NCBI GenBank assembly: GCA_964494135.1 | Contig: CAZBQN010000005.1 | Span: 934 to 64,933 of the forward strand | DNA from: an uncultured Ruminococcus sp. | GTDB lineage: Bacteria; Bacillota; Clostridia; Oscillospirales; CAG-272 | DNA: 64,000 bases | Direction: 5' to 3' | Shown: positions 9,019 through 38,185 of the stretch, piece after piece | How the letters are laid out: each line of letters starts with the position of its first letter | Position numbering within the stretch: the first letter of the stretch is position 1 | Notes under the pieces: model-generated | The model's input: the letters and a program-made list of their open reading frames with translations, nothing else | What the model was told of the DNA's origin: nothing | Databases searched by the model: none | Program-made: the position numbers and the translations under genes

Positions 9019-10206
9019 TTACCTTCCGAGCAGCTTCACCAGTCTCCTTGCCGCCTCCTTCGTGTCCTCGGGACTGCCAAAGGTGGAAAACCGGAAATAG
9101 CCCTCGCCGCACTTACCGAAGCCCTCGCCGGGCGTGCCTACGACCTGAATTTCACGAAGCAGGTAGTCGAAGAACTCCCAGCTTCCCATACCCCCCGGGC
9201 ACTTCATCCATATATAAGGCGCGTTCTTACCGCCGGTGTACCAGATGCCCAGCTCGTCAAGAGCCTCCATCAGGACCTTGGCGTTGTTTTTATAGACACG
9301 GATATTCTCCTTAATCTGCCTCTGTCCCTCGGGCGTAAAGACGGCGGCACCGCCCTTCTGGATAATATACGACACGCCGTTGGTTTTGGTGGTGCGGTTG
9401 CGCACCCACATTGAGTTAAAGCTCATACCGCACCTGCAAAGAGCCTTCGGGATAACGGTATAGCCGAGACGGGTACCCGTAAAGCCTGCGGTCTTTGACA
9501 GCGAGCATATCTCTATGGCGCAGGTCCTCGCTCCCTCAATCTCAAAGATGCTGTGAGGAATGCTCTCGTCCTCGATAAACGCCTCGTACGCCGCGTCGAA
9601 AAGGATAACCGAGCCGTGCGAATTGGCAAAGTCCACCCATCCTTTAAGCTGTGCACGGCTGAAGGTCGCGCCCGTCGGGTTGTTCGGCGAGCAGATGTAG
9701 ATTAAATCCGCCACCGCCCCCTCGTCGGGCTCGGGCAAAAAGCCGTTCTCCTTACCCGAAGCCAGATGAACGATCTCTCTGCCCGCGATAATATTGGCAT
9801 CCACGTACGCAGGGTACGCCGGCTCTATAACCAGAGCTGAACTTGATCTGTCGAACAGGTCAAGGATGTCGCCCAGCTCGTCGCTGGCTCCGCTGGAGAC
9901 AAAGACCTCGTCGGGGTCAAGCAGGACGCCGCGCGCCTCGTAATGCTTCGCAATAATCTCGCGGAGAAAGCCTGCTCCGCACTCGGGCATATATCCGTGA
10001 AAGGACTCCTTTTTCGCCTGGTCATCCACGCCCCCGTGCAGAGCCGTGATAACGCTGTCGCACAAAGGCAGGGAAACGTCGCCGATGCCCATTTTGTACA
10101 GATGCTTATCCGGATGCTCCTTCAGGTACTGCGAAAGCTTTGCGGATATTCCCGCGAAAAGGTAGGAATCCTTCAGATTTGCGTAATTCATATTAGGTGT
10201 AATCAT
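9019..10206 (-). CDS. dapL: LL-diaminopimelate aminotransferase
   Basis: MGIGDVSLP, CSPNNPTGA, FDAAYEAFI, SLSKTAGFTGTRLG (PLP Lys), GTPGEGFG. Adjacent to dapF. Confidence 0.93.
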   Translation of the reverse strand: MITPNMNYANLKDSYLFAGISAKLSQYLKEHPDKHLYKMGIGDVSLPLCDSVITALHGGVDDQAKKESFHGYMPECGAGFLREIIAKHYEARGVLLDPDEVFVSSGASDELGDILDLFDRSSSALVIEPAYPAYVDANIIAGREIVHLASGKENGFLPEPDEGAVADLIYICSPNNPTGATFSRAQLKGWVDFANSHGSVILFDAAYEAFIEDESIPHSIFEIEGARTCAIEICSLSKTAGFTGTRLGYTVIPKALCRCGMSFNSMWVRNRTTKTNGVSYIIQKGGAAVFTPEGQRQIKENIRVYKNNAKVLMEALDELGIWYTGGKNAPYIWMKCPGGMGSWEFFDYLLREIQVVGTPGEGFGKCGEGYFRFSTFGSPEDTKEAARRLVKLLGR

Positions 10207-10994
10207 TCTATCGTATCTCCTTCGTAAACGAACTCACAGGGGCCCGTCATCAATACCGAATAATCGGGAAAGACAGTGATTTTCAGCGTGCCCCCGTCAA
10301 GATGAACCGAAATAGGCTCGCCGGGGTCGCAATAGCCCTTCTTTACCGCCGCCGCCGCAGAGGCGCAGGCTCCCGTGCCGCAAGCCATCGTAACTCCGCT
10401 ACCCCGCTCCCAGACGCGCATCTGCAATTCGCTCCTGTTCATCACTCTGACGAACTCCACGTTCACACCGCCCGGGAAAGCCTCGTGATGCTCAATGACG
10501 GGTCCCAGAGCCGTCAGGGGGGCTGTTTCCATATTATCTGTGAAAATTACCGCGTGGGGATTTCCTACCGAAACCGGCGTACACTCGACACGGGTGCCGC
10601 CTGCGGTAAGTGTCATATCCTCCGAGGGCACTGCGGTGCCCATATCTACGGTAACGCTCCTGACCTTACCGAAGCTTATGCCGAGATCGAGGGTTTTTAT
10701 TCCCGACAAGGTTTCCACGGTCAGTCTTCTTTTATCGGTATAGCCCTTGTCGTAAACGTATTTGCCTACGCAACGAATACCGTTGCCGCACATTTTTGCC
10801 TCGCTGCCGTCGGCGTTGAAAATCCGCATCCTGAAGTCGGCAACCTCCGAGGGGGATATATAGATCATACCGTCAGAGCCTGCGCCGAAGTGCCTGTCGG
10901 AGAGCTTTATTGATAATTCCTCTATATTGTCAGGGACCTCACCGAAAACATACAGATAGTCGTTTCCGAGGCCGTGCATCTTCGTAAAATGCAT
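10203..10994 (-). CDS. dapF: Diaminopimelate epimerase
   Basis: MHFTKMHGLGNDY, MCGNGIRC, VGNPH, ERGSGVTMACGTGA. Start set at 10994 (RBS AAGGAG). Confidence 0.95.
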   Translation of the reverse strand: MHFTKMHGLGNDYLYVFGEVPDNIEELSIKLSDRHFGAGSDGMIYISPSEVADFRMRIFNADGSEAKMCGNGIRCVGKYVYDKGYTDKRRLTVETLSGIKTLDLGISFGKVRSVTVDMGTAVPSEDMTLTAGGTRVECTPVSVGNPHAVIFTDNMETAPLTALGPVIEHHEAFPGGVNVEFVRVMNRSELQMRVWERGSGVTMACGTGACASAAAAVKKGYCDPGEPISVHLDGGTLKITVFPDYSVLMTGPCEFVYEGDTIE

Positions 10995-11079
10995 TTTTAA
11001 TTCTCCTTTTCGTATAGACGGGAGCAAGTATTTTTCATACCTTCAAAAGCCATATTGCCCCCGTCGCTTCTACCGTGCC

Positions 11080-14000
11080 TCATTTGGCATCAATCGTGGA
11101 AATGCCCATTGTAACCTCTTCAAGGACGTCAAGAAGCATTCTGACAGTATCAAGAGAGGTGAGCATAGTGATATTGTTCTGTGCGGCGAGACGGCGGATT
11201 GCCACACCGTCACCGAAATGCTTACCCGACAGAATAGCACGGGTATTTATAACGTAGCTGACGTACCCCTGTCTCAAAGAATCCAGCACTTCCTCACTGC
11301 CCTCGCTGGGCTTATGGAGAAGTCTTGTGCGTATGCCGTGCTCCTTCAGGTACTGCGCGGTCACCGTAGTTGCTTCGATATTGAAGCCCATATTGTAAAA
11401 TCTGCGCACTAAAGGAAGCGTCTCCGCCTTATCCTCGTCGGCAACGCTTACCAACACGGTGCCGTAATTGCGGAGCTTCAGCCCGGAGGCAATCATCGCT
11501 TTGTACATCGCTCGGTGAAGCTTTTTGTCGTAGCCTATCGCCTCGCCGGTCGATTTCATTTCCGGGGACAGGTAGGCATCCATACCGCGGAGCTTTGAGA
11601 AGGAGAAGGCAGGTGCCTTTACGTAATAGCGTTTTTTCTCATCGGGATAAATATCGAATATTCCCTGCTCTGCAAGCGAAACGCCCAAATTAACCATAGT
11701 CGCAATGTCGGCAAGGCTGTAGCCCGTGGCTTTGGACAGGAAGGGCACGGTTCGCGAGGAGCGCGGATTTACCTCTATTATATACACGTCGTCGTGCTCG
11801 TCGACGATAAACTGAATATTGTAAAGTCCTATAATGCCTATCCCAAGCCCCAGCTTTTTGGTATAATCCAAAATCGTGGCCTTCACTCTGTCGGAGATCG
11901 AAAATGTGGGATATACGCTGATAGAGTCGCCCGAATGGATACCAGTCCTCTCAACCAGCTCCATAATACCGGGGACGAAAACCCGCTTGCCGTCGCATAT
12001 AGCGTCGACCTCGACCTCCTTGCCCTTTATATATTTGTCAACCAGCACCGGCTTGTCCTCGTCAATCTCAACGGCGGTTTTCAGATATTCCCTGAGGGCT
12101 TCTTCCTTTGCAACTATCTGCATGGCTCTGCCTCCGAGAACGAAGCTGGGGCGGACGAGCACGGGATAACCAATCTCCGCCGCTGCCTGAACGCCGGCTT
12201 CAATATTCGTCACGGCTCTGCCCTTGGGCTGAGGTATATTCAAATCGGACAAAAGCTTTTCAAACGCATCGCGGTTTTCAGCCTTCTCTATGGCGTCGCA
12301 GTCGGTGCCGATGATTTTCACGCCCCGCTGTGCCAGAGGCTCTGCCAGATTGATGGCCGTCTGACCGCCCAGGGTGGCAATTACTCCCTCCGGTTTTTCA
12401 AGAGCTATGACGTTCATTACGTCCTCGACGCACAGAGGCTCGAAATAGAGCTTGTCAGAGCAGGTGTAATCGGTGGACACGGTTTCCGGGTTATTGTTTA
12501 TGATAATTGCCTCGTAGCCTGCCGCCTTGATTGTCTTGACCGCATGAACGGTGGAATAATCGAACTCCACGCCCTGTCCTATACGGATGGGACCCGAGCC
12601 CAGCACGACGACCTTCTTTTTGTCCGAAACCCGGGACTCGTTTTCCTCCTCGTAGGTGGAATAAAAGTACGGAATATAGCTCTCAAACTCGGATGCGCAG
12701 GTGTCTATCATCTTATATACCGGGAAAATACCGTGCTCCCCGCGCAGCTTGTAAATCTCGGTTTCCTCCCTGCCCCAAAGATATGCAATCTCCTTGTCCG
12801 AGAAGCCCATTTTCTTCGCTTTTCTCAACACGGGTACCGAGTCTTTGCCCTCGGCTATCTCTTTCTCCGCATCGACGATGTTCTTGAGCTTGCGGATGAA
12901 AAGCATATCGATCGCGGTTACGGACGCAATCCTTCCCGCGTCAACACCGCGGCGCAAAAGCTCGGCTATGGCGTAAATGCGGTCGTCTGTACCGATCTTT
13001 ATATACTCCAAAAGCTCGGAGTCCGGAGCACTGTCGAACTTGCGGTTATAGAGATGGTAAAGCCCTATTTCCAAAGAGCGTATGGCTTTGAGCAGGCTCT
13101 CCTCTACCGTGCGTCCGATGCTCATTACCTCTCCCGTCGCCTTCATCTGCGTAGAGAGCGAATTGTTCGCGTCAGCAAACTTGTCGAAGGGAAACCTTGG
13201 CATCTTCGTGACCACGTAGTCAAGGGTTGGCTCAAAGGACGCGGGGGTGTTGGCAATCCTGATTTCGTCAAGCGTCATACCAACGCCGATTTTCGCGGAA
13301 ACTCTCGCTATCGGGTAACCGCTCGCCTTCGATGCCAGGGCGGAAGAGCGCGAAACACGGGGATTTACTTCTATGAGATAATACCGGAAGGAATAAGGGT
13401 CAAGGGCAAACTGCACGTTACAGCCCCCCTCGATCTTCAACGCGCGGATGATCTTCAGCGCGCTGTTCCTCAGCATGTGATACTCCTTGTTCGTCAGCGT
13501 CTGAGAGGGACAGACGACTATGGAGTCGCCGGTATGGATGCCCACCGGATCAATATTTTCCATATTGCATATAGTAATGGCGGTGTCGTTTTTGTCGCGC
13601 ATTACCTCGTATTCTATTTCCTTAAAGCCCTTTATGCTCTTTTCTATCAGCACCTGCCCTACGGGAGAGAGCGACAGGGCGTTTTTCATAAGGGGTACAA
13701 ATTCTTCCTCGTTGTCGGCAAAGCCGCCGCCCGTACCGCCGAGAGTAAAGGCGGGGCGAAGCACTACGGGATATCCGATTTTCTCTGCTATTTTCAACCC
13801 CTCGTCCACACCGTGTGCAATATCCGAGGGAAGCACCGGCTCGCCCAGCTGCTCACACAGCTCCTTAAAAAGCTCTCTGTCCTCGGCGCGCTCAATAGAC
13901 TCACTGCCCGTACCGAGAAGCTCTACACGGCACTCTCTGAGTATTCCCTTCTTCTCAAGTTGCATGGCAAGGTTAAGTCCCGTCTGACCTCCGATACCGG

Positions 14001-14262
14001 GCAGAATTGCATCCGGACGCTCGTAGCGAATTATCTTGGCGATGTATTCAAGGGTCAGAGGCTCCATATACACCTTGTCGGCTATTGAGGTATCCGTCAT
14101 AATGGTAGCGGGGTTGGAGTTGCACAGCACTACCTCGTAGCCCTCCTCTTTCAGGGCGAGGCAAGCCTGTGTGCCGGCGTAGTCGAATTCCGCCGCCTGA
14201 CCTATGACGATAGGTCCGGAGCCAATAACGAGAACCTTTTTTATGTCAGTTCTTTTAGGCAT
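11080..14262 (-). CDS. carB: Carbamoyl-phosphate synthase large subunit
   Basis: [21 protein letters not shown], duplicated ATP-grasp halves, [11 protein letters not shown]-terminal MGS domain. Confidence 0.98.
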
Positions 14263-15348
14263 TGTTCTTTTCCCCTTCCATTATCCCTATGAATTTGTCA
14301 AACAAATACGAGCTGTCCTCCGGTCCCGGAGCGCTTTCGGGATGATACTGCACGCTGAAAATTTTATCCTCACGGCACTCTACACCCTCCACCGTTCCGT
14401 CAAGAATGTTGATATGTGTCGGCGTCAGCCTCGTTGCCCCAAGGCTTTCAAGGTCTACCGCATAGGAGTGATTCTGAGAGGTGATCTCTATTTTGTCGGT
14501 CTCGAGATTGCGCACGGGGTGGTTGCCGCCTCTGTGTCCGAACTTCAATTTATAGGTTTTAGCACCGTATGCCAGCGAAATTACCTGATGTCCGAGGCAA
14601 ATGCCGAAGATAGGGTATTTTCCTCTGATAGCCCTTACCGTTTTGATAACCGGCTGCACGTCTTTCGGGTCGCCCGGTCCGTTTGAGATAAATACTCCGT
14701 CGGGTGACAGACGTTCTATCTCTTTGGCAGGCGTGTTCCACGGAACGACGGTTACGGAACATCCGCGTCTATTCAGCGAGCGGATAATATTCTCTTTCAT
14801 ACCGCAATCAATGGCGACGACATGGTATTTCTCCATCGGAACCCGGGAATAGCGTATGCTTTTACAGCTGACACGGGACACGGCGTCGGTGGGTACGGCG
14901 GCATTCCTTAAAATTTCCAGCCCCTCTTCGAGCGAGGTGTCAACTCCCGTAATCAATACTTTACGTGAGCCGAGGTCGCGTATGGAGCGTGTCAGCTTTC
15001 TCGTATCAATCCCCCACACTCCGGGGATACCGTACTTCTTCATCACCTCGTCAAGGGTTGCCGTGCTTCTGAAGTTTGAGGGCTCGTCGTTATACTCCCT
15101 TACTATCAGCGCGCCTATGGTGGGCGTGCCGGTCTCGTAGTCGTCGTCGCAGACGCCGTAATTGCCAATCAAAGGATAGGTCATTACCACCGCCTGATAG
15201 GTGTAGGACGGGTCGGAGAGTATCTCCTGATAGCCTACCATAGAAGTATTGAAAACTATCTCCAGGACCCTATCGGAGCTGTCGCCGAAGCCGAAGCCCG
15301 TATACTCCTCGCCGTTTTCCAAAATTATCTTTCTGTTGTAGTTTTCTG

Positions 15349-15352
<4 letters not shown>
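14255..15352 (-). CDS. carA: Carbamoyl-phosphate synthase small subunit
   Basis: [31 protein letters not shown]. Confidence 0.97.
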
Positions 15353-20001
<4,649 letters not shown>

Positions 20002-20009
20002 TATTCACC

Positions 20010-21425: not shown

Positions 21426-21472
21426 AATTTACTCCTTTTTCGTTTCCGTCTGCGTTCCTTTGCGCACACCTG

Positions 21473-22747: not shown

Positions 22748-22768
22748 ATCAACTATCCTTTCCCCGTT

Positions 22769-23482
22769 TTATATATTGTCCGTCAGGCGTTTCATAACCT
22801 CGGCGTAAGCGTCCTCGACACCTCCAAGGTCTCTGCGGAAGCGGTCCTTGTCCAGCTTCTGTCCCGTCTTTATATCCCACAGACGGCAGGTGTCGGGGCT
22901 TATCTCATCGGCGAGAACTACATCCCCGCCTGACAGCTTTCCGAACTCCAGCTTGAAATCAACGAGAGTTATGCCGCAGGATTTCCAGAAGGCTTTTAGC
23001 TCGTCGTTTACCGTAAAGGAGTACTTTTTGATAATTTCGATCTCCTCTCCGGTTGCAAGACCCAAAGCCAGAGCGTGATATTCGTTCAGGAGCGGGTCGC
23101 CCAGCTCGTCGTTCTTATAGGAAAACTCAATAGTCGGAGAAGCAAATACTATACCCTCTTCCACGCCGTATCTCTTTGCAAAGGAGCCTGCCGAGACGTT
23201 TCTGATAATGACCTCAAGCGGGACTATGGAAACCTTTTTGACCAAGGTTTCTCTGTCGCTCAGCTCCTCGACGTAGTGGGTGGGGACGCCGGCTTTTTCA
23301 AGCCTTTGCATGAGCAGATTACTCATTCTGTTGTTGATAACACCCTTGCCTGCAACAGTGCCTTTTTTCAGTCCGTTGAACGCGGTGGCGTCATCCTTGT
23401 ACGACACGATAAGAAGCTCCGGGTCATCGGTGGCAAAGACCTTTTTCGCCTTCCCCTCGTACAGCTGTTCTCTCTTTTCCAT
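22769..23482 (-). CDS. purC: SAICAR synthetase
   Basis: LYEGKAK, PLEVIIRN, LVDFKLEFG, LADEISPDTCRLWD, LDKDRFR. Confidence 0.97.
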   Translation of the reverse strand: MEKREQLYEGKAKKVFATDDPELLIVSYKDDATAFNGLKKGTVAGKGVINNRMSNLLMQRLEKAGVPTHYVEELSDRETLVKKVSIVPLEVIIRNVSAGSFAKRYGVEEGIVFASPTIEFSYKNDELGDPLLNEYHALALGLATGEEIEIIKKYSFTVNDELKAFWKSCGITLVDFKLEFGKLSGGDVVLADEISPDTCRLWDIKTGQKLDKDRFRRDLGGVEDAYAEVMKRLTDNI

Positions 23483-23593: not shown

Positions 23594-23603
23594 TCACGCG
23601 ATT

Positions 23604-23632
23604 ATTATACACGCGCGGAGCTTGTTTGTCAA
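23604..23632 (-). promoter_or_regulatory. sigma-A promoter of the purC operon
   Basis: TTGACA-N17-TATAAT. Confidence 0.9.
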
Positions 23633-25353: not shown

Positions 25354-25420
25354 ATTTAAAGCCTCCAAAGTACTGTATGCCGACGGAGCAAACATCCGTC
25401 GGCATTGATGTTTCTATAAA

Positions 25421-29364: not shown

Positions 29365-29410
29365 TTTATTTTCTCCTTTTGAAGGTTTTTTGCAAATTTC
29401 GTTTTTAATG

Positions 29411-29457
29411 AAAAACGGCGCCTCTCCTGCTTAATCCGCAAGAAAGACGCCTTTGCC
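29411..29457 (-). promoter_or_regulatory. Second ANTAR-type hairpin plus terminator in the GSIII leader
   Basis: AAGGC-AAAGGC-GTCTT. GGCGTCTTTCTTGC pairs with GCAGGAGAGGCGCC, followed by GTTTTT. Confidence 0.8.
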
Positions 29458-29523
29458 TTTTCTTCTATTTATTAATTAAATGCACTGCAAAGATAAATTG
29501 ACACAAAAGACTGCCACAAGTGT

Positions 29524-29581
29524 GAAAATCAGAAAGGGCAAGGGACTTTTTGGATTTACCAATCTAAGACGCCCTTGCCTT
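29524..29581 (-). promoter_or_regulatory. First ANTAR-type hairpin plus terminator in the GSIII leader
   Basis: AAGGC-AAGGGC-GTCTT. GGCAAGGG pairs with CCCTTGCC, followed by CTTTCTGATTTT. Confidence 0.75.
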
Positions 29582-29591
29582 TACGCGACTC

Positions 29592-29620
29592 ATTATACAC
29601 CCCGAAAAACCGTTTGTCAA
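29592..29620 (-). promoter_or_regulatory. sigma-A promoter of glnN-amtB-asnB
   Basis: TTGACA-N17-TATAAT. Confidence 0.9.
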
Positions 29621-29681: not shown

Positions 29682-29710
29682 TTGACAATTTGCAAGTTTG
29701 GTGCTATAAT
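29682..29710 (+). promoter_or_regulatory. sigma-A promoter of the glutamate synthase operon
   Basis: TTGACA-N17-TATAAT. Confidence 0.9.
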
Positions 29711-29722
29711 GCTTGCATATAT

Positions 29723-29786
29723 GAGCAAAGGCGTTCATAGATAGCGGCGACTGCCGTTTTTTCGTGAGCCTTTGCTCTTTTCGTTT
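29723..29786 (+). promoter_or_regulatory. ANTAR-type hairpin plus terminator in the GOGAT leader
   Basis: GAGC-AAAGGC-GTTC. GAGCAAAGGC pairs perfectly with GCCTTTGCTC (29768-29777), followed by TTTTCGTTT. Confidence 0.8.
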
Positions 29787-29808: not shown

Positions 29809-30903
29809 ATGTTAAAAGAAGGTCAGATACGTATTCCCTCCGGATGCGCCATTGCCGCCGTAATATCAAAGGACGGCGAAAGAATGTCGGGCAGACAGAT
29901 AATCGAGGCAATGAAGCCTATGCACGACCGCTCAAACGGCTTGGGCGGCGGCTTTGCCGCTTACGGCATTTATCCGGAATATAAAGACTTTTATGCTCTC
30001 CACTTTTTCTTTGACGACCGAAATACGAGAAAAAACTGCGAGGTATTCTTAAAGGAAAGATTTGAGATTGTGAAATCCGAGATAATTCCCACGAGGAAAA
30101 TCCCCGCAATCACCGACGAGCCGGTCATCTGGAGATACTTCGTCGCCCCTCTGCGCTCGGTGCTTGACTCGGCACAGCTGGACGAAAAGGAATTCGTCGT
30201 GCGCACGGTAATGAAGATAAACACCGAGATGCCCGGAGCTTACGTATTTTCAAGCGGAAAGAACATGGGCACCTTCAAGGCGGTGGGCTTCCCCGAGGAC
30301 GTAGGCGAATTTTACAGACTGGACGAATACGAGGGCTATTCCTGGACTGCCCACGGCAGATATCCCACCAACACCCCCGGCTGGTGGGGCGGCGCGCACC
30401 CTTTCACTCTGCTTGACTATTCCATTGTTCACAACGGAGAAATATCCTCCTACGACGCCAACAGAAGACATATCGAAATGTTCGGCTACAAGTGCAATCT
30501 TCAAACCGATACCGAGGTCATAACCTACATATTTGATTATCTGGTGCGCGTGCAGGGGCTTACTCTGTCCGAGGCGGCAAGCGTCGTCGCCGCTCCCTTC
30601 TGGAGCACTATCGAGAACAAGAGCGATCTTGATGACAAGAAGAAGCATATTTTCCTGCGCACGCTCTTCCCGGGTCTTCTCGTCACCGGACCCTTTTCCA
30701 TCGTCCTCGGCTACGACGGAGGTCTTATGGCACTGAACGACCGCCTGAAGCTGCGCTCAATGGTAGTAGGCGAGTGTGACGACAAGGTGTATATTGCAAG
30801 CGAGGAAGCCGCCATTCGGGTAATGGAGCCGAACGTGAAAAGCATCTGGGCACCGGCAGGCGGCGAGCCGGTTATCGTAAAAGTTAAGGAGGGCTGTTTC
30901 TGA
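29809..30903 (+). CDS. Class II glutamine amidotransferase domain of a split glutamate synthase (GltB1-like)
   Basis: Short propeptide then SG-C-AIAA, DRSNGLGGG, AHGRYPTNT, AHPF, VHNGEI, DRLKLR. Confidence 0.85.
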   Translation: MLKEGQIRIPSGCAIAAVISKDGERMSGRQIIEAMKPMHDRSNGLGGGFAAYGIYPEYKDFYALHFFFDDRNTRKNCEVFLKERFEIVKSEIIPTRKIPAITDEPVIWRYFVAPLRSVLDSAQLDEKEFVVRTVMKINTEMPGAYVFSSGKNMGTFKAVGFPEDVGEFYRLDEYEGYSWTAHGRYPTNTPGWWGGAHPFTLLDYSIVHNGEISSYDANRRHIEMFGYKCNLQTDTEVITYIFDYLVRVQGLTLSEAASVVAAPFWSTIENKSDLDDKKKHIFLRTLFPGLLVTGPFSIVLGYDGGLMALNDRLKLRSMVVGECDDKVYIASEEAAIRVMEPNVKSIWAPAGGEPVIVKVKEGCF

Positions 30904-32408
30904 TGGGAATCAATTATATATACCCCGAATTTGAAGTCGTAAGGTCGGACAGCCGCTGTATTGCCTGCCGCGTGTGCGAAAGGCAGTGTGCAAACGGTGT
31001 ACATTCCTACGACAAGGACCGCAAAATCATGCTCAGCGACGAAACGAAGTGCGTAAACTGTCAACGATGCGTATCCCTGTGCCCCACCCGAGCACTCAAG
31101 ATAGTCAAGAGCGACTGCCGTCTTCGGGAAAACGCCAACTGGCAACAGGACACGATAAACGAAATATACAAGCAGGCGGGCAGCGGTGCTGTGCTCCTGT
31201 CCTCTATGGGTAACCCGAAGCCCCTGCCCGTATACTGGGACAAAATTCTGATAAACGCCTCACAGGTAACCAATCCCCCCATAGACCCTCTGCGCGAGCC
31301 TATGGAAACAAAGGTATTCCTGGGCAAGAAGCCCGACAAACCGAGACGGGGCGAGGACGGCAAGCTAATATGCGAGCTTCCCCCTCAGCTTGAGCTGTCG
31401 ATGCCGATGATGTTCTCGGCGATGAGCTACGGGTCAATCAGCTACAACGCCCACGAGAGCCTTGCCAGAGCGGCGAGAGAGCTGGGCATTTACTACAACA
31501 CCGGCGAGGGCGGTCTGCACGAGGATTTCTACGTTTACGGCGACAACACCGTAGTACAGGTTGCGTCGGGCAGATTCGGCGTCCACGAGGAGTATCTGAA
31601 AGCAGGCGCGGCGGTTGAGATAAAGATGGGTCAGGGCGCAAAGCCCGGCATCGGCGGACATCTGCCCGGCGCGAAGATAGTCGGCGACGTGTCACGTACC
31701 CGTATGATTCCCGAGGGCTCGGACGCCATCTCCCCAGCACCCCATCACGACATATATTCCATTGAGGACCTGCGCCAGCTGGTATACTCGCTAAAGGAAG
31801 CGACCGAATACAAAAAGCCCATAATCGTCAAGGTGGCTGCGGTACACAATATCGCCGCAATTGCCAGCGGAATTGCCAGAAGCGGCGCGGATATTATAGC
31901 CATCGACGGCTTCCGCGGCGGCACGGGCGCGGCACCTACCAGAATTCGTGACAACGTCGGTATTCCTATCGAGCTTGCTTTGGCATCCGTGGACCAGCGT
32001 CTGCGGGACGAGGGAATAAGAAACAACGTTTCTCTCATAGTGGGCGGAAGCATTCGCTCTGCCGCCGACGTAGTAAAGGCAATAGCACTGGGTGCCGACG
32101 CCTGCTATATTGCCACAGCCGCGCTTATCGCCCTGGGCTGTCACTTGTGCCGTACCTGCCAGACCGGAAAGTGCAACTGGGGTATCGCAACCCAGCGTCC
32201 CGAGCTGGTAAAGCGGTTGAACCCCGACATAGGCTCCGGCAGGCTGGTAAACCTGATGCGCGCATGGCAGCATGAAATCAAGGAGCTGATGGGCGGTATG
32301 GGTATCAACTCGGTAGAAGCACTGCGCGGCAACCGCCTTATGCTCAGAGGCGTCGGACTTACCGACAGAGAGCTGAAAATTCTCGGCATATCCCACGCCG
32401 GCGAATAA
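30903..32408 (+). CDS. Ferredoxin + FMN-binding domain of a split glutamate synthase (GltB2-like)
   Basis: Two N-terminal CxxCxxC motifs. AMSYGS, NTGEGG, QVASGRFGV, EIKMGQGAKPGIGGHLPG, SPAPHHDIYSIEDL, GCHLCRTCQTGKC. Confidence 0.92.
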   Translation: MGINYIYPEFEVVRSDSRCIACRVCERQCANGVHSYDKDRKIMLSDETKCVNCQRCVSLCPTRALKIVKSDCRLRENANWQQDTINEIYKQAGSGAVLLSSMGNPKPLPVYWDKILINASQVTNPPIDPLREPMETKVFLGKKPDKPRRGEDGKLICELPPQLELSMPMMFSAMSYGSISYNAHESLARAARELGIYYNTGEGGLHEDFYVYGDNTVVQVASGRFGVHEEYLKAGAAVEIKMGQGAKPGIGGHLPGAKIVGDVSRTRMIPEGSDAISPAPHHDIYSIEDLRQLVYSLKEATEYKKPIIVKVAAVHNIAAIASGIARSGADIIAIDGFRGGTGAAPTRIRDNVGIPIELALASVDQRLRDEGIRNNVSLIVGGSIRSAADVVKAIALGADACYIATAALIALGCHLCRTCQTGKCNWGIATQRPELVKRLNPDIGSGRLVNLMRAWQHEIKELMGGMGINSVEALRGNRLMLRGVGLTDRELKILGISHAGE

Positions 32409-32553
32409 GGCGAAAAAAGTTATACAAGCCCGAACCCTTTTAATCAGCCGCAAGTGCCTTTAAAGGAAAACATAAACCTTTGTTGTCAAATAACTTGACA
32501 CGGGCCCCGGCATCGGCAAAGGTGCGTGCGGTATCAGGAGGAATATCAAAGGA

Positions 32554-32997
32554 ATGAAGCGAATATATGTAAATGAAAAATGGTGTCTCGGATGTCACCT
32601 GTGTGAATACAACTGTGCATTTGCAAACTCGGGGCTCTCCGACATGTCAGCGGCACTGAAGGGTAAGCCCATCTACCCCAGAATACACATTGAGGGAGAC
32701 GAGAGGGTTTCCTATGCGGTTTCCTGCCGTCACTGTACCGACCCAATATGTCAGAAAAGCTGTATTGCGGGCGCGATAACGGCAGAGGACGGAGTGGTGC
32801 GCATCAACAAAAGCAAGTGCGTGGGCTGTCACACCTGCGTTCTCGTCTGCCCCTACGGTGCGCTGGCAGCCTCCCCCGAGGGAGTTATGCAGAAATGCGA
32901 GCTGTGCCTGAAGAACAGCTGCGGTGAGCCCGCATGTGTCAAGGGCTGTCCCAACAACGCCATCGTATATGAGGAAAGGGGTGAAGAAAATGGCTGA
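32554..32997 (+). CDS. 4Fe-4S dicluster protein (CooF/HydN-like)
   Basis: CLGCHLCEYNC, CRHCTDPICQKSC, CVGCHTCVLVCPYG, KCELC...PACVKGCP. Confidence 0.9.
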   Translation: MKRIYVNEKWCLGCHLCEYNCAFANSGLSDMSAALKGKPIYPRIHIEGDERVSYAVSCRHCTDPICQKSCIAGAITAEDGVVRINKSKCVGCHTCVLVCPYGALAASPEGVMQKCELCLKNSCGEPACVKGCPNNAIVYEERGEENG

Positions 32998-34237
32998 ATA
33001 CGTAATTATCGGAGGAGGCGTCGCCGCCGTCGGGTGTATTGAAGGCATCAGAAGCGTTGACGGTACGTCGCCTATAACCGTTATTTGTGAGGAGAAGCAC
33101 CCCGTATACTGCCGTCCCCTCATCTCCTACTATCTGGAGGGAAAAACCACCCTCGAAAAAATGAATTACCGCCCGGATGACTTTTATGAGTCTCAGGGCT
33201 GCCGGATGCTCTTTGGCAGACGCGCCCTGTCGGTTGACAAAGACAGGAAGACCGTAGTGCTTGACGGAGGTGACACCCTGTCCTACACCTCCCTGTGCGT
33301 GGCGACCGGTTCTTCTCCTTTCGTGCCCCCTATCAAGGGGCTTGACGGTGTGAAAAACTGCTTCACGTTTATGACGCTTGACGACACGCTGGCACTGGAA
33401 AAGGCGATAAAGGAAAGCTCGCGGGTGCTGATCGTCGGCGCGGGTCTTATCGGACTGAAATGCGCGGAGGGCATCGCACAGCGGGTAGGAAGCATTACGG
33501 TCTGCGACCTTGCCCCCCGTATTCTTTCAAGTATTCTTGACGGCGAATGCGCGGCTATGATGCAGAAGGCCCTCGAAGAGCACGGGATTTCGCTTATGCT
33601 CGGCGACACGGTCTCGGAATTCCTGGGAAACCGCGCCCTGATGAAAAGCGGTAAAGCCGTTGACTTCGATATTCTGGTTATGGCGGTCGGCGTCCGCCCG
33701 AGCACCGCGCTGGTAAAGGATGCAGGCGGCGAGGTCAACCGCGGAATCATAGTTGACGAATATATGCGCACATCCCTTGACGGCATATACGCCGCCGGCG
33801 ACTGCACCGAGGGCATGGATATTTCCCTGGGAGCGAGAAGGGTCCTCGCCATTCTGCCAAACGCATATATGCAGGGTCACGCCGCAGGGGTGAATATGGC
33901 AGGGGGCAGCGAGAGCTTTGACAAGGCTATTCCCATGAACTCCATCGGGCTGTTCGGCACTCACGCAATTACGGCGGGAAGCTATTTCGGCTCTGACGAG
34001 GGCGGTGAAATTTTTGAGGAAAAGGGGGATGGCACGCTGAAGCGTTTTTACACGAAGGACGGCTTCCTGTGCGGTTACATCCTCATCGGCGACGTATGCA
34101 GAGCGGGAATTTACACCTCTCTCATTCGCGAAAAGGTGCCCCTTGACAGTTTGAACTTCGATTTACTCAAAAAAACTCCCGTTTTGTTCGCTTATTCTCA
34201 AAAAAAGCGTGGAAAAATTCTCGGAGGTGTGGTATAA
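32990..34237 (+). CDS. NAD(P)/FAD-dependent oxidoreductase (pyridine nucleotide-disulphide family)
   Basis: Start set at 32990. IIGGGVAA, ATGSSP, IVGAGLIG, IYAAGDC. Confidence 0.88.
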   Translation: MAEYVIIGGGVAAVGCIEGIRSVDGTSPITVICEEKHPVYCRPLISYYLEGKTTLEKMNYRPDDFYESQGCRMLFGRRALSVDKDRKTVVLDGGDTLSYTSLCVATGSSPFVPPIKGLDGVKNCFTFMTLDDTLALEKAIKESSRVLIVGAGLIGLKCAEGIAQRVGSITVCDLAPRILSSILDGECAAMMQKALEEHGISLMLGDTVSEFLGNRALMKSGKAVDFDILVMAVGVRPSTALVKDAGGEVNRGIIVDEYMRTSLDGIYAAGDCTEGMDISLGARRVLAILPNAYMQGHAAGVNMAGGSESFDKAIPMNSIGLFGTHAITAGSYFGSDEGGEIFEEKGDGTLKRFYTKDGFLCGYILIGDVCRAGIYTSLIREKVPLDSLNFDLLKKTPVLFAYSQKKRGKILGGVV

Positions 34238-34959
34238 TGATAAATATTGATGCAAAAGGTCTTGATTTCACCGCGCTGAACGAGGCAATCAGGGAGCACG
34301 ACTGCGACCTTGAAATTACGAACTGCCTCGGTCAGAGGTTCATAGCCTCGGGTATGTCGAGGAGGAAAATCAGGATAAAGGGCACGCCGGGCAACGCCCT
34401 GGGCGCATATCTGAACGGCGGCGAAATATACGTGGACGGGAACGCTCAGGATGCCGTCGGAGATACCATGAACGAGGGCTATATCGTCGTTGACGGCAAT
34501 ATCGGCGACGCCGCGGGCTACGCCATGCGAGGCGGAAAAATCTACGTCCGAGGCAATGCCGGCTACCGCGCCGGTATACATATGAAGGAATACAAGGAAA
34601 AGGTTCCGGTGATGATTATCGGCGGTAAGGCAGGCAGCTTTCTCGGCGAATATCAGGCAGGCGGAAAAATCATCGTCCTCGGTCTGTGCGACGACGGAAA
34701 GCCCATCGTCAGCAATTTTCCCTGCACGGGTATGCACGGCGGAAAAATGTATCTGCGCTCCGACTGTAAGGATTTAAGACTGCCCGACAAGGTAAAGGTA
34801 TCACGGGCTACCGAAGGCGATATGCTTGAAATCGTCGAATATCTGACCGAATATTGCGATATATTCGGACTTGACAAGGAGAAAATTCTCTCATCGGAAT
34901 TTACGGTAATCGTACCAGACACGAAAAATCCGTACAAGCAAATGTACGTAGCAAATTAA
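34237..34959 (+). CDS. GXGXG domain of a split glutamate synthase (GltB3-like)
   Basis: GQRFIA, GTPGNALGAYLNGG, GDAAGYAMRGG, FLGEYQAGG, GMHGG. Confidence 0.9.
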   Translation: MINIDAKGLDFTALNEAIREHDCDLEITNCLGQRFIASGMSRRKIRIKGTPGNALGAYLNGGEIYVDGNAQDAVGDTMNEGYIVVDGNIGDAAGYAMRGGKIYVRGNAGYRAGIHMKEYKEKVPVMIIGGKAGSFLGEYQAGGKIIVLGLCDDGKPIVSNFPCTGMHGGKMYLRSDCKDLRLPDKVKVSRATEGDMLEIVEYLTEYCDIFGLDKEKILSSEFTVIVPDTKNPYKQMYVAN

Positions 34960-34980: not shown

Positions 34981-36195
34981 ATGAAATACACGGCAGAGGA
35001 AGTTATGCAGTACGTAAACGAGGAGGACGTTAAGTTTATCCGCCTTGCATTCTGCGACATTTACGGCAAGCAAAAGAATATATCGATAATGCCCAGCGAG
35101 CTTCCCCGCGCGTTCTCGGACGGCATCGCCTTCGACGCCTCTGCCATTTCCGGATTTGGCGACGAGACCCATTCAGACCTTATTCTTCATCCCGACCCGT
35201 CAACCCTGTCGGTTCTGCCCTGGCGTCCCGAGCACGGCAGAGTGGTGCGCATGTTTTGCTCTATCACCCACCCCGACGGCACACCTGCCGAGTGCGACAC
35301 GAGAAGTCTGCTCATCCGTGCAGTGGAGGACGCAAGACTGGCGGGCGTGACCTTTGATTTCGGTCCGGAGCTGGAATTTTATCTTTTCAAATTGGACGAG
35401 CTCGGAAATAAGACGAGCATCCCTTATGACGAGGCGGGATATATGGACATTGCGCCCGAGGATAAGGGGGAGAACATTCGGCGTGAGATATGCCTGATGC
35501 TGGAGCAGATGGACATCCGTCCCGAAAGCTCACACCACGAGGAGGGGCCCGGTCAGAACGAGATAGACTTCCGCTATTCCGGTGCTCTCACCGCCGCAGA
35601 CAACGCCCAGACCTTTAAAACCGCAGTCAAGGCGGTTGCGGGCAGAAACGGACTGTGGGCAGATTTCAGCCCAAAGCCCTTGAAGGACAAGGCGGGAAAC
35701 GGCTTTCATATCAACATATCCGCCGACAGCGACGGAGGCAAGGACCTTCTGCCCCACATAATCGCGGGCATTCTCCGCTTCATCCCCGACATGACCGCCT
35801 TTCTCAATCCCACCGAAAATTCATACGCGCGCCTCGGCAAAAACAAGGCTCCCGCATATATTTCCTGGTCGGGCGAAAACCGTTCTCAGCTGGTCCGCCT
35901 GCCCGGTGCGGTATACGAGCACAAGAGAGTTGAGCTCCGCTCTCCCGACCCGACCGCCAATCCTTATATCTCCTTTGCCCTTCTGATTTACGCAGGTCTG
36001 TACGGAATAGAGAACAAGCTGACGCCGCCACCTGCCGCAGATATCAACTTCTTCCAGGCAGATGAGAGGACGCTGTCGAAATTCAAAAAGCTCCCCTCCA
36101 CGAAGGAAGAAGCTGTATCGCTGATGAGGGAGAGCGAATTTATAAAAGAGCATCTGCCGAAGCAGATAATAGAACATTACTGCAACAAGCGTTGA
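34981..36195 (+). CDS. Glutamine synthetase type I-like protein, degenerate and C-terminally truncated
   Basis: IRLAFCDIYG, GPELEFYLF, HHEEGPGQNEIDF, GNGFH, NRS, VELRSPDPTANPY. The flap reads RLGKNKAP instead of RLVPGYEAP. 404 aa. Confidence 0.88.
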   Translation: MKYTAEEVMQYVNEEDVKFIRLAFCDIYGKQKNISIMPSELPRAFSDGIAFDASAISGFGDETHSDLILHPDPSTLSVLPWRPEHGRVVRMFCSITHPDGTPAECDTRSLLIRAVEDARLAGVTFDFGPELEFYLFKLDELGNKTSIPYDEAGYMDIAPEDKGENIRREICLMLEQMDIRPESSHHEEGPGQNEIDFRYSGALTAADNAQTFKTAVKAVAGRNGLWADFSPKPLKDKAGNGFHINISADSDGGKDLLPHIIAGILRFIPDMTAFLNPTENSYARLGKNKAPAYISWSGENRSQLVRLPGAVYEHKRVELRSPDPTANPYISFALLIYAGLYGIENKLTPPPAADINFFQADERTLSKFKKLPSTKEEAVSLMRESEFIKEHLPKQIIEHYCNKR

Positions 36196-36233: not shown

Positions 36234-36818
36234 TTGAGCTTGCAAGAGCATGTTTACAGCGTGATGATAGTTTCCGCCTCGGAAGCCTTCAATTCCGCAT
36301 TGACCCCATTGCTTCCCGACTTCAAATTCACACCCGTCCGCATAGAAACCAGCGTTAATTCGGCAAAACGCACCCTGGCTGACCACCCATACGATTTTAT
36401 AGTAATCAATTCTCCCCTGCCCGACGACACGGGTGTCCGCTTTGCCATTGACGTTTCGGGGCTGAAAAGCTCGGTGGCGCTTCTCATGGTGCGCTCGGAT
36501 ATATACGCCGCCACCCAGAACAAGGTTGCCGAGCACGGCGTCTACGTACTGCCGAAGCCCACGTCAAAGCCCATTATAACCCAGGCGATAGACTGGATGA
36601 CAGCCACACTGGAAAGGCTCAAAAAGTTTCAGAAGAAAACAATGTCCACCGAGGAGAAAATGGAGGAGATACGTATCGTCAACCGTGCAAAGTGGGTATT
36701 GATAGACAGGCTGAAAATGACCGAGCAGGAGGCGCACCGCCATATTGAAAAGCAGGCGATGGACAGATGCACCTCAAAGCGCGAGGTCGCAGAAGAGATA
36801 ATAAAAATCTACACATAA
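36234..36818 (+). CDS. Pseudo-receiver + ANTAR RNA-binding antiterminator (NitR/AmiR-like)
   Basis: TTG start, RBS GAAAGGAGG. Receiver-like DFIVINSPLP. ANTAR motif IVNRAKWVLI...TEQEAHRHIEKQAMDR. Confidence 0.9.
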   Translation: MSLQEHVYSVMIVSASEAFNSALTPLLPDFKFTPVRIETSVNSAKRTLADHPYDFIVINSPLPDDTGVRFAIDVSGLKSSVALLMVRSDIYAATQNKVAEHGVYVLPKPTSKPIITQAIDWMTATLERLKKFQKKTMSTEEKMEEIRIVNRAKWVLIDRLKMTEQEAHRHIEKQAMDRCTSKREVAEEIIKIYT

Positions 36819-36856
36819 TACAAGAAAAATATATTCATAAAGCAAGGACCTATAAA

Positions 36857-38185
36857 ATGTTTAATTCGCAAAATCTGGGAGTTAACTCTCAAAACCACCT
36901 TACGATAGGAAGCCACGACACGGTGGAGCTGGCTCGGAAATTCGGCACGCCCCTGTACGTTATGGACGAAGACCTGATGAGGAGCAACTGCCGCGCCTAC
37001 AAAGGTGCTTTGGATAATTACTACGACGGCAACGGACTTATCCTATTTGCGAGCAAGGCGCTCTGTACCGTGTACACAGGCAGACTGGTCGCAGAGGAGG
37101 GGCTGGGTGCCGACGTGGTATCCGGCGGTGAGCTTTACACCCTTTACAAGGCGGGCTTTCCCATGGATAAGGTGTTTTTCCACGGCAACAACAAGACCCG
37201 TGACGAGTTAGAGCTGGCAACCGACCTCGGCGTCGGCCATATCGTCGTCGACAACAAATACGAGCTCGAGCTTTTGAACGAGATAGCATCGAAGAAGGAA
37301 ATTACGGTGCATATCCTGTTCCGCATCAAGCCCGGAGTGGACGCGCACACCCACGATTTTGTCAGAACCGGTCAGATAGATTCAAAGTTCGGCGTTGCTC
37401 TTGAAAACGGCGAGGCATTCGAAATTCACAAGCTGGCACTGTCCATGAGCCATATCCGCGTCGACGGCGTGCACTGCCACATCGGCTCGCAGATATTCGA
37501 CGTTGAGCCCTTCTGCGAGGCCGCGCGGGTTATGATAGGCTTCGTCGCCGATCTGTACGAAAAGCTCGGTATCAAGGCAAAGATTCTCAACCTGGGCGGC
37601 GGCTTCGGCATAAAGTATACCTCCTCCGACGACCCCCTTGACCCCGCCGAATACATCAGGCAGGTCACGGACGTTGTGAAGACGGTGTCAGCTGAGCGGG
37701 GCATCGAGACTCCCTTCCTCGTATTTGAGCCGGGCAGGTCCATAGTTGCCACGGCGGGAATTACTCTCTATACAGTCGGATGCGTCAAGCACATTGAGAA
37801 CGTACGCACCTACGTTTCCATAGACGGTGGTATGTGCGACAACCCGAGATATATTCTCTACGGCTCAAAGTACACCGCAGTGCTGGCTAACAATGCGTCA
37901 GCCGAGCCCACAGCCCCCGTGACTATCGCCGGAAAATGCTGTGAGTCAGGCGACCTGATTCAGGAGCACGTAATGATGCCCGAAATACACGTAGGCGACA
38001 CTCTCGCCGTGCTTGCGACCGGCGCGTATAACTACTCTATGTCAAGCAACTACAACCGCATCCCCCGCCCTCCCATCGTTATGGTCAAGGGCGACGAGGC
38101 AAAGGTCATTGTCAAGCGCGAAACCTATGAGGATCTTATCAAAAACGATCTCTATGAGCCACAGACGGTTTTGCAGGAGGTTTGA
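36857..38185 (+). CDS. lysA: Diaminopimelate decarboxylase
   Basis: FGTPLYV, FASKA, DVVSGGEL, HCHIGSQI, NLGGGFG, EPGRSI, GKCCESGD, GAYNYSMSSNYN. Confidence 0.96.
   Translation: MFNSQNLGVNSQNHLTIGSHDTVELARKFGTPLYVMDEDLMRSNCRAYKGALDNYYDGNGLILFASKALCTVYTGRLVAEEGLGADVVSGGELYTLYKAGFPMDKVFFHGNNKTRDELELATDLGVGHIVVDNKYELELLNEIASKKEITVHILFRIKPGVDAHTHDFVRTGQIDSKFGVALENGEAFEIHKLALSMSHIRVDGVHCHIGSQIFDVEPFCEAARVMIGFVADLYEKLGIKAKILNLGGGFGIKYTSSDDPLDPAEYIRQVTDVVKTVSAERGIETPFLVFEPGRSIVATAGITLYTVGCVKHIENVRTYVSIDGGMCDNPRYILYGSKYTAVLANNASAEPTAPVTIAGKCCESGDLIQEHVMMPEIHVGDTLAVLATGAYNYSMSSNYNRIPRPPIVMVKGDEAKVIVKRETYEDLIKNDLYEPQTVLQEV

Follow-up and report, generated by a model that had tools for sequence, protein, structure and literature searches.

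How is nitrogen metabolism controlled in a gut bacterium whose nitrogen genes are accompanied by none of the textbook regulators? Nitrogen sensing in strictly anaerobic gut and rumen Clostridia is poorly understood, and the question is raised in a clear form by a stretch of 64,000 nucleotides from an uncultured Ruminococcus sp. (contig CAZBQN010000005.1 of GenBank assembly GCA_964494135.1), which is named the window in the following. Scans with Pfam and NCBIfam revealed three transcription units flanking two intergenic regions: an operon for purine, pyrimidine, carbamoyl-phosphate and lysine synthesis (pur/pyr/car/dap); the genes glnN, amtB/PII and asnB; and the genes of glutamate synthase (GOGAT), of a protein resembling glutamine synthetase (GS), of an ANTAR protein, and lysA. 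In agreement with the initial annotation, neither GlnR/TnrA or another MerR-type regulator, nor a sigma-54 activator, nor a classical histidine kinase was found in the window. The same annotation regarded the ANTAR protein as the only regulator of the cluster; this is correct with respect to the classes just named, but a PII domain, fused to the ammonium transporter AmtB, is present as well. We consider it rather probable that the window carries an attenuation regulon of about 29 kb for nitrogen, in which the GS-like protein senses 2-oxoglutarate (2-OG) and gates the ANTAR protein, an antiterminator that acts at hairpins located at the 5' ends of the transcripts.

The evidence begins with the leaders. 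A promoter scan confirmed the earlier placement of three sigma-A promoters: these sigma-70-type sites are the best three between positions 23300 and 30000, and all of them agree fully with the consensus (Table 1). The core RGCAANGGCGTY begins 11, 12, and 13 nt past the three -10 boxes, and a fourth copy is located 122 nt deeper in the glnN leader (23581-23592, 29568-29579, and 29446-29457 on the (-) strand, 29724-29735 on the (+) strand). Thus, the motif search recovered the pattern RGC-AANGGC-GTY, which had been noticed 11-13 nt past the -10 boxes and once more in the leader of the type III GS gene (GSIII). The core occurs six times in the window, where 0.24 copies are expected, and none of 100 shuffles attained six. 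The complete element is an 18-nt hairpin consisting of a 6-bp stem and the hexaloop AANGGC. For an unfiltered search of the window, we used a covariance model built from 74 hairpin instances; the four leader hairpins alone scored 22-34 bits, and the next match reached 13 bits. The two remaining core copies, at 2121(+) and 28883(+), lie antisense within coding regions, score at most 13 bits, and were discarded as chance occurrences. The former (2121-2132) is found inside a gene for an alpha-N-acetylglucosaminidase (NAGLU). The latter, AGCAAGGGCGTC at 28883-28894 (+), is located within glnN, scores 9 bits with the hairpin model, lacks a nearby promoter, and is probably fortuitous; for glnA of Clostridium saccharobutylicum, an antisense RNA has been reported.

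Folding of the leaders supported the claim that each hairpin overlaps the 5' arm of a terminator with a T tract (z-scores from -1.9 to -5.6). The terminator 5' arm is formed either by the 5' half and the loop of the hairpin (pur leader, hairpin 1 of glnN, GOGAT leader) or by the loop and the 3' half (hairpin 2 of glnN), and each of the two glnN copies has a terminator of its own. Because the loop and one stem half of every hairpin are also part of a terminator stem, the two structures are mutually exclusive. A second hairpin with A1 and G4 in its loop, as required for a canonical P1/P2 pair, was sought in all leaders and is absent; upstream of the element there is no place for one, since it starts 8-10 nt past the -10 box. 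The inner hairpin of the leaders was also considered as a recognition hairpin and rejected: the top of its stem (CAGA...TCTG) is conserved, but the loops are variable and lack A1/G4.

In order to judge the conservation of the element, related loci were collected with a profile of the ANTAR protein, which yielded at least 536 matching stretches in a collection containing one genome per species; the closest 80 loci were retrieved. The closest relatives are uncultured Clostridia from gut and rumen, labelled Lachnospiraceae, Oscillospiraceae or Acutalibacteraceae. In the 1.0 Mb of the 80 loci, the covariance model gave 112 matches at E<0.05, so that the scan bore out the hairpin beyond the four sites of the window. 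Nearly all matches are on the sense strand and just upstream of a gene, namely glnN (45), the first GOGAT gene (27), the GS-like gene (5), or purC (2); in one additional locus (L013) a hairpin precedes purA. A further 19 matches precede an unnamed open reading frame, which in 17 cases encodes a 444-residue protein resembling, by its own sequence only, a glutamate dehydrogenase (GDH) of the NADP type. In many relatives, this GDH-like protein is encoded between glnN and GOGAT with one or two hairpins in front, for example in L003 at 3458-3482(-), in L011 at 2851-2953(-), and in L031 at 3240-3346(-). GDH therefore seems to be co-induced with GS and GOGAT, which would not be expected of a regulon responding to nitrogen limitation.

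The loop AANGGC is found in 74 of 74 instances, and the closing pairs, C-G followed by G.U, are invariant among them. The GOGAT hairpin is near-identical in all 19 related leaders (ATGAGC, or GTGAGC/ATGGGC; the loop is AAGGGC in L054). Most stems fall into two classes, AAAGGC/GTCTTT in front of glnN and gdhA and ATGAGC/GTTCAT in front of GOGAT, which differ in four pairs without loss of pairing. Altogether, 98.4% of the stem cells are paired and four of the six pairs change on both sides, with far lower values for shuffled and slid controls; note that instances had been selected for at least five of six pairs and that the two classes stand for a small number of independent events. In distant loci the G.U pair is replaced by A-U or G-C, which favours an RNA helix over a DNA operator. 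The competing terminator is conserved, too: in the consensus of 20 GOGAT leaders, hexaloop and 3' stem pair with AAATGAGCGCCTTT, which is followed by a T tract. In the GOGAT leaders examined, the full hairpin begins 8-10 nt past the -10 box and hence within a few nucleotides of the 5' end of the transcript. No clear hairpin of this type was seen in L085, a distant locus rich in AT.

These data allow us to assess whether the element might work independently of the ANTAR protein and serve as the DNA operator of an unseen repressor overlapping +1, or as a leader RNA which itself senses a metabolite. Its first copy does occupy the classical operator position, about +1 to +20 of each promoter, and the element is an imperfect inverted repeat. 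On the other hand, G.U is a mismatch in DNA and gives way to A-U or G-C in the distant loci, copies occur also 120 nt past promoters and between genes and almost always on the sense strand, and the most conserved part is the asymmetric loop, which is complementary to the 3' arm of the terminator. With respect to a riboswitch, no Rfam family was found in the leaders (window at the gathering threshold, 23400-29900 at E<=1), and 18 nt are too small for a ligand pocket. Both variants are therefore regarded as highly improbable.

A protein of the ANTAR family is a plausible reader of such hairpins, and the one encoded in the window carries a clear ANTAR domain (residues 139-190; 63.8 bits at a cutoff of 27.3 for Pfam PF03861), whereas its receiver match is below threshold (Response_reg, 21.1 at a cutoff of 30.2). 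In the PDB it matches Rv1626, AmiR (1QO0, E=5e-5), and a 192-residue chain named 'Response regulator' (6WSH), which we take to be EutV. Asn59 aligns with the phospho-acceptor aspartate of Rv1626 (1S8N), and the acidic pair of strand beta-1 is replaced by Ser/Ala, as had been noted for this protein; these replacements are invariant in 18 close homologues and in five proteins of 30-38% identity. Owing to the asparagine at the acceptor position, the protein cannot be a phospho-switch, and by its residues it is classified as a pseudo-receiver of the AmiR-like subclass.

According to Ramesh 2012, an ANTAR target is a pair of hairpins whose hexaloops carry A1 and G4; a dimer binds the pair, one subunit per hairpin, and the second hairpin is located at the terminator's 5' base (PMC3369931). 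The element of the window shares with this motif the A1/G4 hexaloop, closing pairs conserved in sequence, and the overlap with the 5' base of the terminator; moreover, the nitrogen regulons predicted in that study for Desulfotomaculum have targets before the same kinds of genes, namely those of PII, amt, GS, and GOGAT. Given what is known of the family, binding of the ANTAR protein to the hairpins is most likely. The assignment of the hairpins as ANTAR targets, made in the initial annotation, is therefore upheld with respect to loop and terminator competition, and has to be modified in one respect: the hairpin is single and not the canonical dual one. The comparison with EutV underlines the difference. 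EutV is phosphorylated by a kinase and recognizes two hairpins 5-12 nt apart, whereas the protein of the window lacks the acceptor aspartate, no classical histidine kinase was found in the 64 kb, and a single hairpin starts at about +1 to +3.

If phosphorylation does not control the ANTAR protein, which signal does? The best candidate for a partner is the GS-like protein encoded directly upstream. It is about 44% identical to the GS of Bacillus subtilis and contains both the Gln-synt_N and the Gln-synt_C domain; its score of 352 bits is below the cutoff of 429 for the NCBIfam model TIGR00653 of GlnA. For a closer inspection, 66 full-length proteins (65 from the retrieved loci plus the one of the window) were aligned with B. 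subtilis GlnA. The flap PGYEAP has become KN-KAP in the window and is shorter by one residue; the catalytic flap glutamate Glu304 (St Glu327) is a lysine in 65 of the 66 sequences, in line with the previously reported loss in the protein of the window. Arg62 is replaced by aspartate in the window and in 60 of 66 members, and an arginine occurs in 0 of 66. Relative to B. subtilis GlnA, the subfamily also lacks a loop of 12 residues and the last 23 residues or so, which, judged from their position, correspond to helix alpha-15 of the 'thong' that joins the rings. In B. subtilis GS, the flap, the D50 loop, and the thong helices bind the tails of GlnR/TnrA, and Glu304, braced by Arg62, contacts the amide of glutamine (PMC9249791).

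All the other ligands are in place. The residues corresponding to B. subtilis E132, E134, E189, E196, H245, E333, R316, R321, R335, and D53 are kept in the window; within the subfamily, E189 is conserved in 65 of 66 and the remaining metal and substrate ligands in 66 of 66 proteins. The designation 'pseudo-GS' thus applies in part: flap glutamate, Arg62, and the last C-terminal helix are lost, but every metal and substrate ligand is retained, so that the term is too strong for the copy of the window, for which residual chemistry is conceivable.

More informative than a single protein is the genomic context of the family. Among the loci which include 190 nt or more upstream of the ANTAR gene, 75 of 75 have the GS-like gene directly in front of it, at a median distance of about 30 nt. 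The pair is retained even in loci whose operon lacks GOGAT, and where GOGAT is encoded elsewhere the pair has a hairpin of its own, for example in L070 and L077, which indicates that the circuit regulates itself. An exhaustive search among representatives of clusters formed at 50% identity extended the family by many GS-like proteins of 40-55% identity, and the catalytic set is incomplete in 86 of the 107 representatives that were aligned. A curated alignment confirmed multiple losses of metal ligands and of catalytic arginine and glutamate residues for P0245, P0253, P0257, P0267, and P0280. We checked the neighbourhoods of seven non-canonical representatives, namely these five plus P0244 and P0347, which are of 45-55% identity and have lost metal and substrate ligands: an ANTAR gene follows directly in 7/7 cases (8/8 counting the window's own) and encodes a pseudo-receiver protein of about 190 residues. 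These neighbourhoods are related to nitrogen, containing glnN, amtB-PII, GOGAT, carAB, pyrG, asnB, gdh, or purA/B/C. After two control genes for canonical GS, possessing the canonical flap and Arg62, an ANTAR gene was found in 0/2 cases. The expected co-occurrence of the GS-like and the ANTAR gene is thus confirmed. Since the GS-like partner stays paired with the ANTAR protein while its active site decays, it must have a non-catalytic function; this argues that its conserved role is a regulatory one. Two top-scoring hits of the representative search, P0241 (4424 residues) and P0242 (2757 residues), comprise 12 and 6 GS-like stretches, respectively, and could be tandem arrays of GS domains or artefacts of assembly or gene calling.

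The pairing also bears on a simpler explanation, namely that the GS-like protein is a second working GS co-transcribed with GOGAT and that the ANTAR protein receives its signal in another way, for instance from PII, be it free or part of AmtB, or from a metabolite bound directly to the pseudo-receiver. The catalytic metal ligands are all intact in the copy of the window, the PII domain belongs to the regulon, and in C. saccharobutylicum an active glnA is reported to precede nitR. We nevertheless judge this explanation to be quite unlikely: the flap glutamate is almost always a lysine, the helix joining the rings is absent, the score remains under the GlnA cutoff, and the genome has its own regulated GSIII. 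In addition, the pairing persists with catalytically dead partners as well as in loci with GOGAT elsewhere.

What might a GS-derived sensor bind? In methanogens, GSI-alpha enzymes are switched on by 2-OG, which binds to an allosteric pocket between subunits (PMC10799026). In the GS of M. thermolithotrophicus (MtGS) this pocket consists of Phe18, Arg20, a small residue at position 34, Arg88, Arg174, Arg175, and Ser191; in B. subtilis GS, an equivalent of Arg88 is missing, and Tyr20 and Glu36 occupy two of the positions (PMC10799026). The pocket of Methanosarcina mazei GlnA1 is composed of F24, R26, S38, R87, R172, R173, and S189 (PMC11957540). MtGS was mapped via the B. subtilis numbering, for which PMC10799026 gives Y20 and E36, and not by direct alignment. 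At the B. subtilis positions 20, 22, 34, 36, 83, 169, 170, and 186, the protein of the window has F, R, N, S, R, R, R, and S; these are F19, R21, S35, R82, and, in addition, the Arg-Arg pair and the serine aligned to 169, 170, and 186. Throughout the subfamily, pocket residues are conserved in 65-66 of 66 proteins, the sole variable position being 34 (N in 62, S in 4). In the set of 86 representatives whose catalytic residues are incomplete, conservation is 86-99% for pocket residues and 39-74% for catalytic ones, and 83 of the 86 have a small residue at position 36. When 390 positions of these proteins were ranked by conservation, the pocket occupied ranks 5-61 and the catalytic residues ranks 94-237. 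By the criteria of PMC10799026, the GS-like family is predicted to bind 2-OG and to be insensitive to inhibition by glutamine.

The initial annotation favoured another ligand, glutamine (or glutamate/ATP), and let the GS-like protein sequester or activate the ANTAR protein. In such a model, the ligand would bind in the active site, as in the feedback-inhibited GS of B. subtilis, and the liganded protein would then capture the ANTAR protein. This model gains some plausibility from the fact that the protein of the window retains all ligands for glutamate, ATP, and metals, and that the altered regions (flap, D50 loop, thong helix) are precisely those binding GlnR/TnrA; furthermore, the combination of Arg62->Asp and Glu304->Lys resembles a charge swap of the Arg62-Glu304 contact which fixes glutamine in the feedback-inhibited enzyme. 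However, such an Asp/Lys pairing is limited to the subclade of the window, so that the charge swap is speculation, and sister proteins paired with ANTAR lack metal ligands and active-site arginine and glutamate residues. Feedback by glutamine requires Arg62 (PMC10799026), which is missing from the whole subfamily and is kept in 9 of the 86 incomplete representatives. Because Arg62 is missing and the active site decays while the pocket is conserved, 2-OG is a better candidate than glutamine, glutamate, or ATP; sensing of glutamine is considered unlikely, and we depart from the annotation in this point.

For the attenuation regulon governed by 2-OG, we suggest the following course of events. Each of the three transcripts (pur/pyr/car/dap; glnN-amtB/PII-asnB; GOGAT-GS-like-ANTAR-lysA) starts with the 18-nt hairpin. 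By default, its loop and one half of its stem are absorbed into the longer, bipartite intrinsic terminator, and transcription would stop in the leader. The ANTAR protein would bind the hexaloop hairpin, keep it closed, and block the terminator, allowing RNA polymerase to continue. As the ANTAR protein is not phosphorylatable, it is most likely gated by the GSI-alpha derivative encoded upstream, similar to AmiC-AmiR and NasS-NasT; direct contact of the two proteins is most likely in the light of strict synteny, the pseudo-receiver, and partners which are dead enzymes. Due to the conservation of its pocket, 2-OG is the best-supported signal. At low 2-OG, which corresponds to nitrogen excess, the GS-like oligomer would keep the ANTAR protein inactive; at high 2-OG, under nitrogen limitation, it would release or activate it. 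An inhibitory partner relieved by 2-OG is what we infer from AmiC/AmiR, NasS/NasT, and a C. thermocellum mutant (see below). Activation would turn on ammonium uptake, GSIII, GOGAT, in relatives also GDH, and the biosynthetic pathways which consume glutamine and aspartate. With the genes of sensor and antiterminator placed behind a hairpin, the circuit would exert positive feedback on itself.

Several observations weigh against this mechanism or parts of it. One hairpin 8-10 nt past the -10 box replaces the canonical two bound by a dimer, and the mode of recognition may thus differ. With its full set of metal and substrate ligands, the GS-like protein of the window might retain catalytic turnover or respond to ligands of the active site. 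Some of the degenerate representatives are metagenome gene calls of uncertain quality. The pocket motif is present in some apparently canonical GSI-alpha proteins as well, for example in P0332; taken alone, the motif shows descent from a 2-OG-responsive GS and not a role as a sensor. The sign of regulation was deduced by analogy and from the reported C. thermocellum mutant, whose deletion could be polar on the ANTAR gene. Finally, the co-induction of nitrogen-consuming pathways together with assimilation is left unexplained by the data presented here.

Most components of the proposed circuit have counterparts in known systems. In clostridia, antitermination of GS and GOGAT genes by NitR under nitrogen limitation has been proposed (PMC6316151, PMC4676874, PMC9888227); in Clostridium thermocellum, the ANTAR gene is Clo1313_2030, the gene of a type I-alpha GS is 2031, and the GOGAT genes are 2032-2036 (PMC4676874, PMC9888227). 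Both the glnA-nitR-gltAB cluster of C. saccharobutylicum and the cluster of C. thermocellum resemble the window in that an ANTAR gene directly follows the gene of a type I GS next to GOGAT, and the order of the latter cluster (five GOGAT genes, GSI, ANTAR) is identical to that of the window. For these clusters, however, neither a sensor role nor a 2-OG pocket nor a pseudo-enzyme partner has been described, and the regulon of the window reaches further, including GSIII, AmtB-PII, asnB, and a 14-kb operon for purines, pyrimidines, carbamoyl phosphate, and lysine. The GS of the C. saccharobutylicum glnA-nitR cluster is a working enzyme. For C. thermocellum, the title of a 2017 study by Rydzak reports that deletion of the type I GS deregulates nitrogen metabolism, and assimilation genes were reportedly up despite high glutamine.

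AmiC/AmiR of Pseudomonas aeruginosa and NasS/NasT of Paracoccus provide the precedent for partner gating: the ANTAR receiver is non-phosphorylatable, the gene of the sensor is adjacent and co-transcribed, and a ligand bound to the sensor frees the antiterminator (PMC3369931 among other sources). The sensors differ, as AmiC and NasS possess the fold of periplasmic binding proteins and respond to amides or nitrate, whereas the partner in the window is an oligomeric GS derivative which putatively senses a central metabolite. With B. subtilis GS, the proposed sensor has in common that a GSI-alpha protein, in B. subtilis a dodecamer, controls a nucleic-acid-binding regulator by contact. The B. subtilis enzyme is fully catalytic, senses glutamine via Arg62 and Glu304, and has DNA-binding partners of the MerR type, TnrA/GlnR; the GS-like protein has other residues at both positions, is devoid of alpha-15, and has an RNA-binding protein as its presumed partner. 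The full pocket is shared by MtGS and M. mazei GlnA1, and the arginine for glutamine feedback is absent from MtGS as it is from the protein of the window. In these two enzymes, 2-OG switches activity or assembly, whereas the protein of the window lacks the flap glutamate and has a presumed output through antitermination.

We tentatively extend the proposal to the whole family, at a confidence that falls just short of even: GS-derived proteins, ranging from near-intact to dead, would be 2-OG receptors which gate ANTAR proteins by partner switching and act through a single hairpin at the 5' terminus. In many Clostridia of gut and rumen, the two proteins together with the hairpin would act as the master regulator of nitrogen, replacing GlnR/TnrA, NtrBC, or NtcA and co-regulating assimilation with the nucleotide and amino-acid pathways that consume glutamine.

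Table 1. Genes and leader elements of the proposed nitrogen regulon, ordered by position in the window
Feature	Position	Strand	Evidence and remarks
purC-purA-purB-guaA-pyrG-purF-carA-carB-dapF-LL-DAP aminotransferase operon	9019..23482	(-)	Pfam, NCBIfam; terminator after 9019
pur-leader bipartite terminator with inner hairpin and T tract; outer 5' arm = hairpin 5' half + loop	23514..23593	(-)	minimum free energy -33 kcal/mol, z -3.1
pur-leader ANTAR-type hairpin GAGGGC[AATGGC]GTCTTC	23578..23595	(-)	motif search; covariance model 22.3 bits, E=1e-4
Promoter, pur/pyr/car/dap operon	23604..23632	(-)	TTGACA-17-TATAAT, 12/12 consensus
asnB, glutamine-dependent asparagine synthetase	23770..25395	(-)	Asn_synthase 245 bits
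Ammonium transporter AmtB fused C-terminally to PII (GlnK-like) domain	25421..27163	(-)	Ammonium_transp 393 bits, P-II 82 bits
glnN, type III GS	27268..29364	(-)	GSIII_N 268 bits
glnN-leader terminator 2, 14-bp stem + GTTTTT; 5' arm begins inside loop of hairpin 2	29407..29451	(-)	terminator scan; fold z -5.6
glnN-leader hairpin 2 AAAGGC[AAAGGC]GTCTTT	29443..29460	(-)	covariance model 33.8 bits, E=1e-8
glnN-leader terminator 1, 5' arm overlaps loop of hairpin 1	29526..29579	(-)	fold, z -1.9
glnN-leader hairpin 1 AAAGGC[AAGGGC]GTCTTA	29565..29582	(-)	motif search; covariance model 29.7 bits
Promoter, glnN-amtB/PII-asnB	29592..29620	(-)	TTGACA-17-TATAAT, 12/12 consensus
Promoter, GOGAT-GS-like-ANTAR-lysA operon	29682..29710	(+)	12/12 consensus, extended -10 TG
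GOGAT-leader hairpin ATGAGC[AAAGGC]GTTCAT	29721..29738	(+)	motif search; covariance model 29.4 bits
GOGAT-leader terminator: outer helix GAGCAAAGGC/GCCTTTGCTC, inner hairpin, then TTTTCGTTT	29721..29786	(+)	minimum free energy -33 kcal/mol, z -4.0
Five-gene split (archaeal-type) glutamate synthase	29809..34959	(+)	GATase_2, Glu_synthase, Fer4, Pyr_redox_2, GXGXG domains
GSI-alpha-like protein, 404 residues, proposed sensor	34981..36195	(+)	Gln-synt_N + Gln-synt_C; flap Glu->Lys, Arg62->Asp, C-terminal helix absent, 2-OG pocket residues kept
Pseudo-receiver ANTAR antiterminator (putative), 194 residues	36234..36818	(+)	ANTAR domain; TTG start 8 nt past AGGAGG
lysA, diaminopimelate decarboxylase	36857..38185	(+)	TIGR01048 472 bits, match from residue 40 of longer open reading frame

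The genes themselves (Table 1) deserve some comments. The enzymes of the 14-kb pur/pyr/car/dap operon are consumers of glutamine, aspartate, or glutamate. The product of glnN is likely the assimilatory GS of this genome. The fusion of AmtB and PII recurs in L082 and, downstream of glnN, in many related loci; its PII domain is a potential second sensor of 2-OG/ATP inside the regulon. In the gap between glnN and amtB, 27190-27250 (-), there is a stem AATCCCGAA...TTCGGGATT without a T tract, which is not a hairpin of the ANTAR type and may be a processing or stability element. The reading frame of asnB begins with MPTDV-C, and the nucleophilic cysteine of the class II amidotransferase is residue 6, which points to a short propeptide like that of B. 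subtilis PurF; the asnB start codon is located inside an 11-bp hairpin (25377-25405). No terminator was found between the ANTAR gene and lysA, whose start is likely the ATG at 36857. Outside the regulon, a 364-residue protein (7534-8628, (+)) combines an N-terminal winged-helix-like region with a histidine-kinase-like ATPase and a STAS-like DUF4325; having no HisKA domain, it is not a classical sensor kinase. The NAGLU protein mentioned above (1197-6407, (-)) has 1736 residues and four F5/8 type C domains, which fits a gut organism degrading host glycans. A full-length Gut-1 RNA (RF01706; 53 bits at a gathering score of 50) was detected at 38725-38800 (-), flanked by the genes for a cytidine deaminase and a uridine-kinase-like protein.

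Control of GS and GOGAT by NitR, predicted ANTAR nitrogen regulons of Firmicutes, regulation of GlnR/TnrA by GS, methanogen GS switched by 2-OG, and pseudo-receiver ANTAR proteins gated by partners are all known. Our literature searches, which included a 2025 review of GS regulation, retrieved no family of GS-derived, often dead proteins with a 2-OG pocket as partners of ANTAR proteins, no single 5'-terminal hairpin of the ANTAR type, and no ANTAR nitrogen regulon reaching purine, pyrimidine, carbamoyl-phosphate, asparagine, and lysine genes. Of these, the proposed GS-derived sensor partner for ANTAR is well supported by the sequences compared here.

If the proposal is true, a compact circuit consisting of a sensor, an antiterminator, and an 18-nt RNA would operate in at least about 500 species-level genomes. 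It would join ammonium assimilation to the synthesis of purines, pyrimidines, asparagine, and lysine, and it would explain the 'deregulation' ascribed to the deletion of the type I GS in C. thermocellum, which is relevant to the engineering of biofuel strains. Owing to their small size, the modules of hairpin and terminator could serve as nitrogen-responsive expression parts. For the protein families concerned, it would mean that an ancient enzyme has been turned into a metabolite receptor and that ANTAR proteins can act on a single hairpin.

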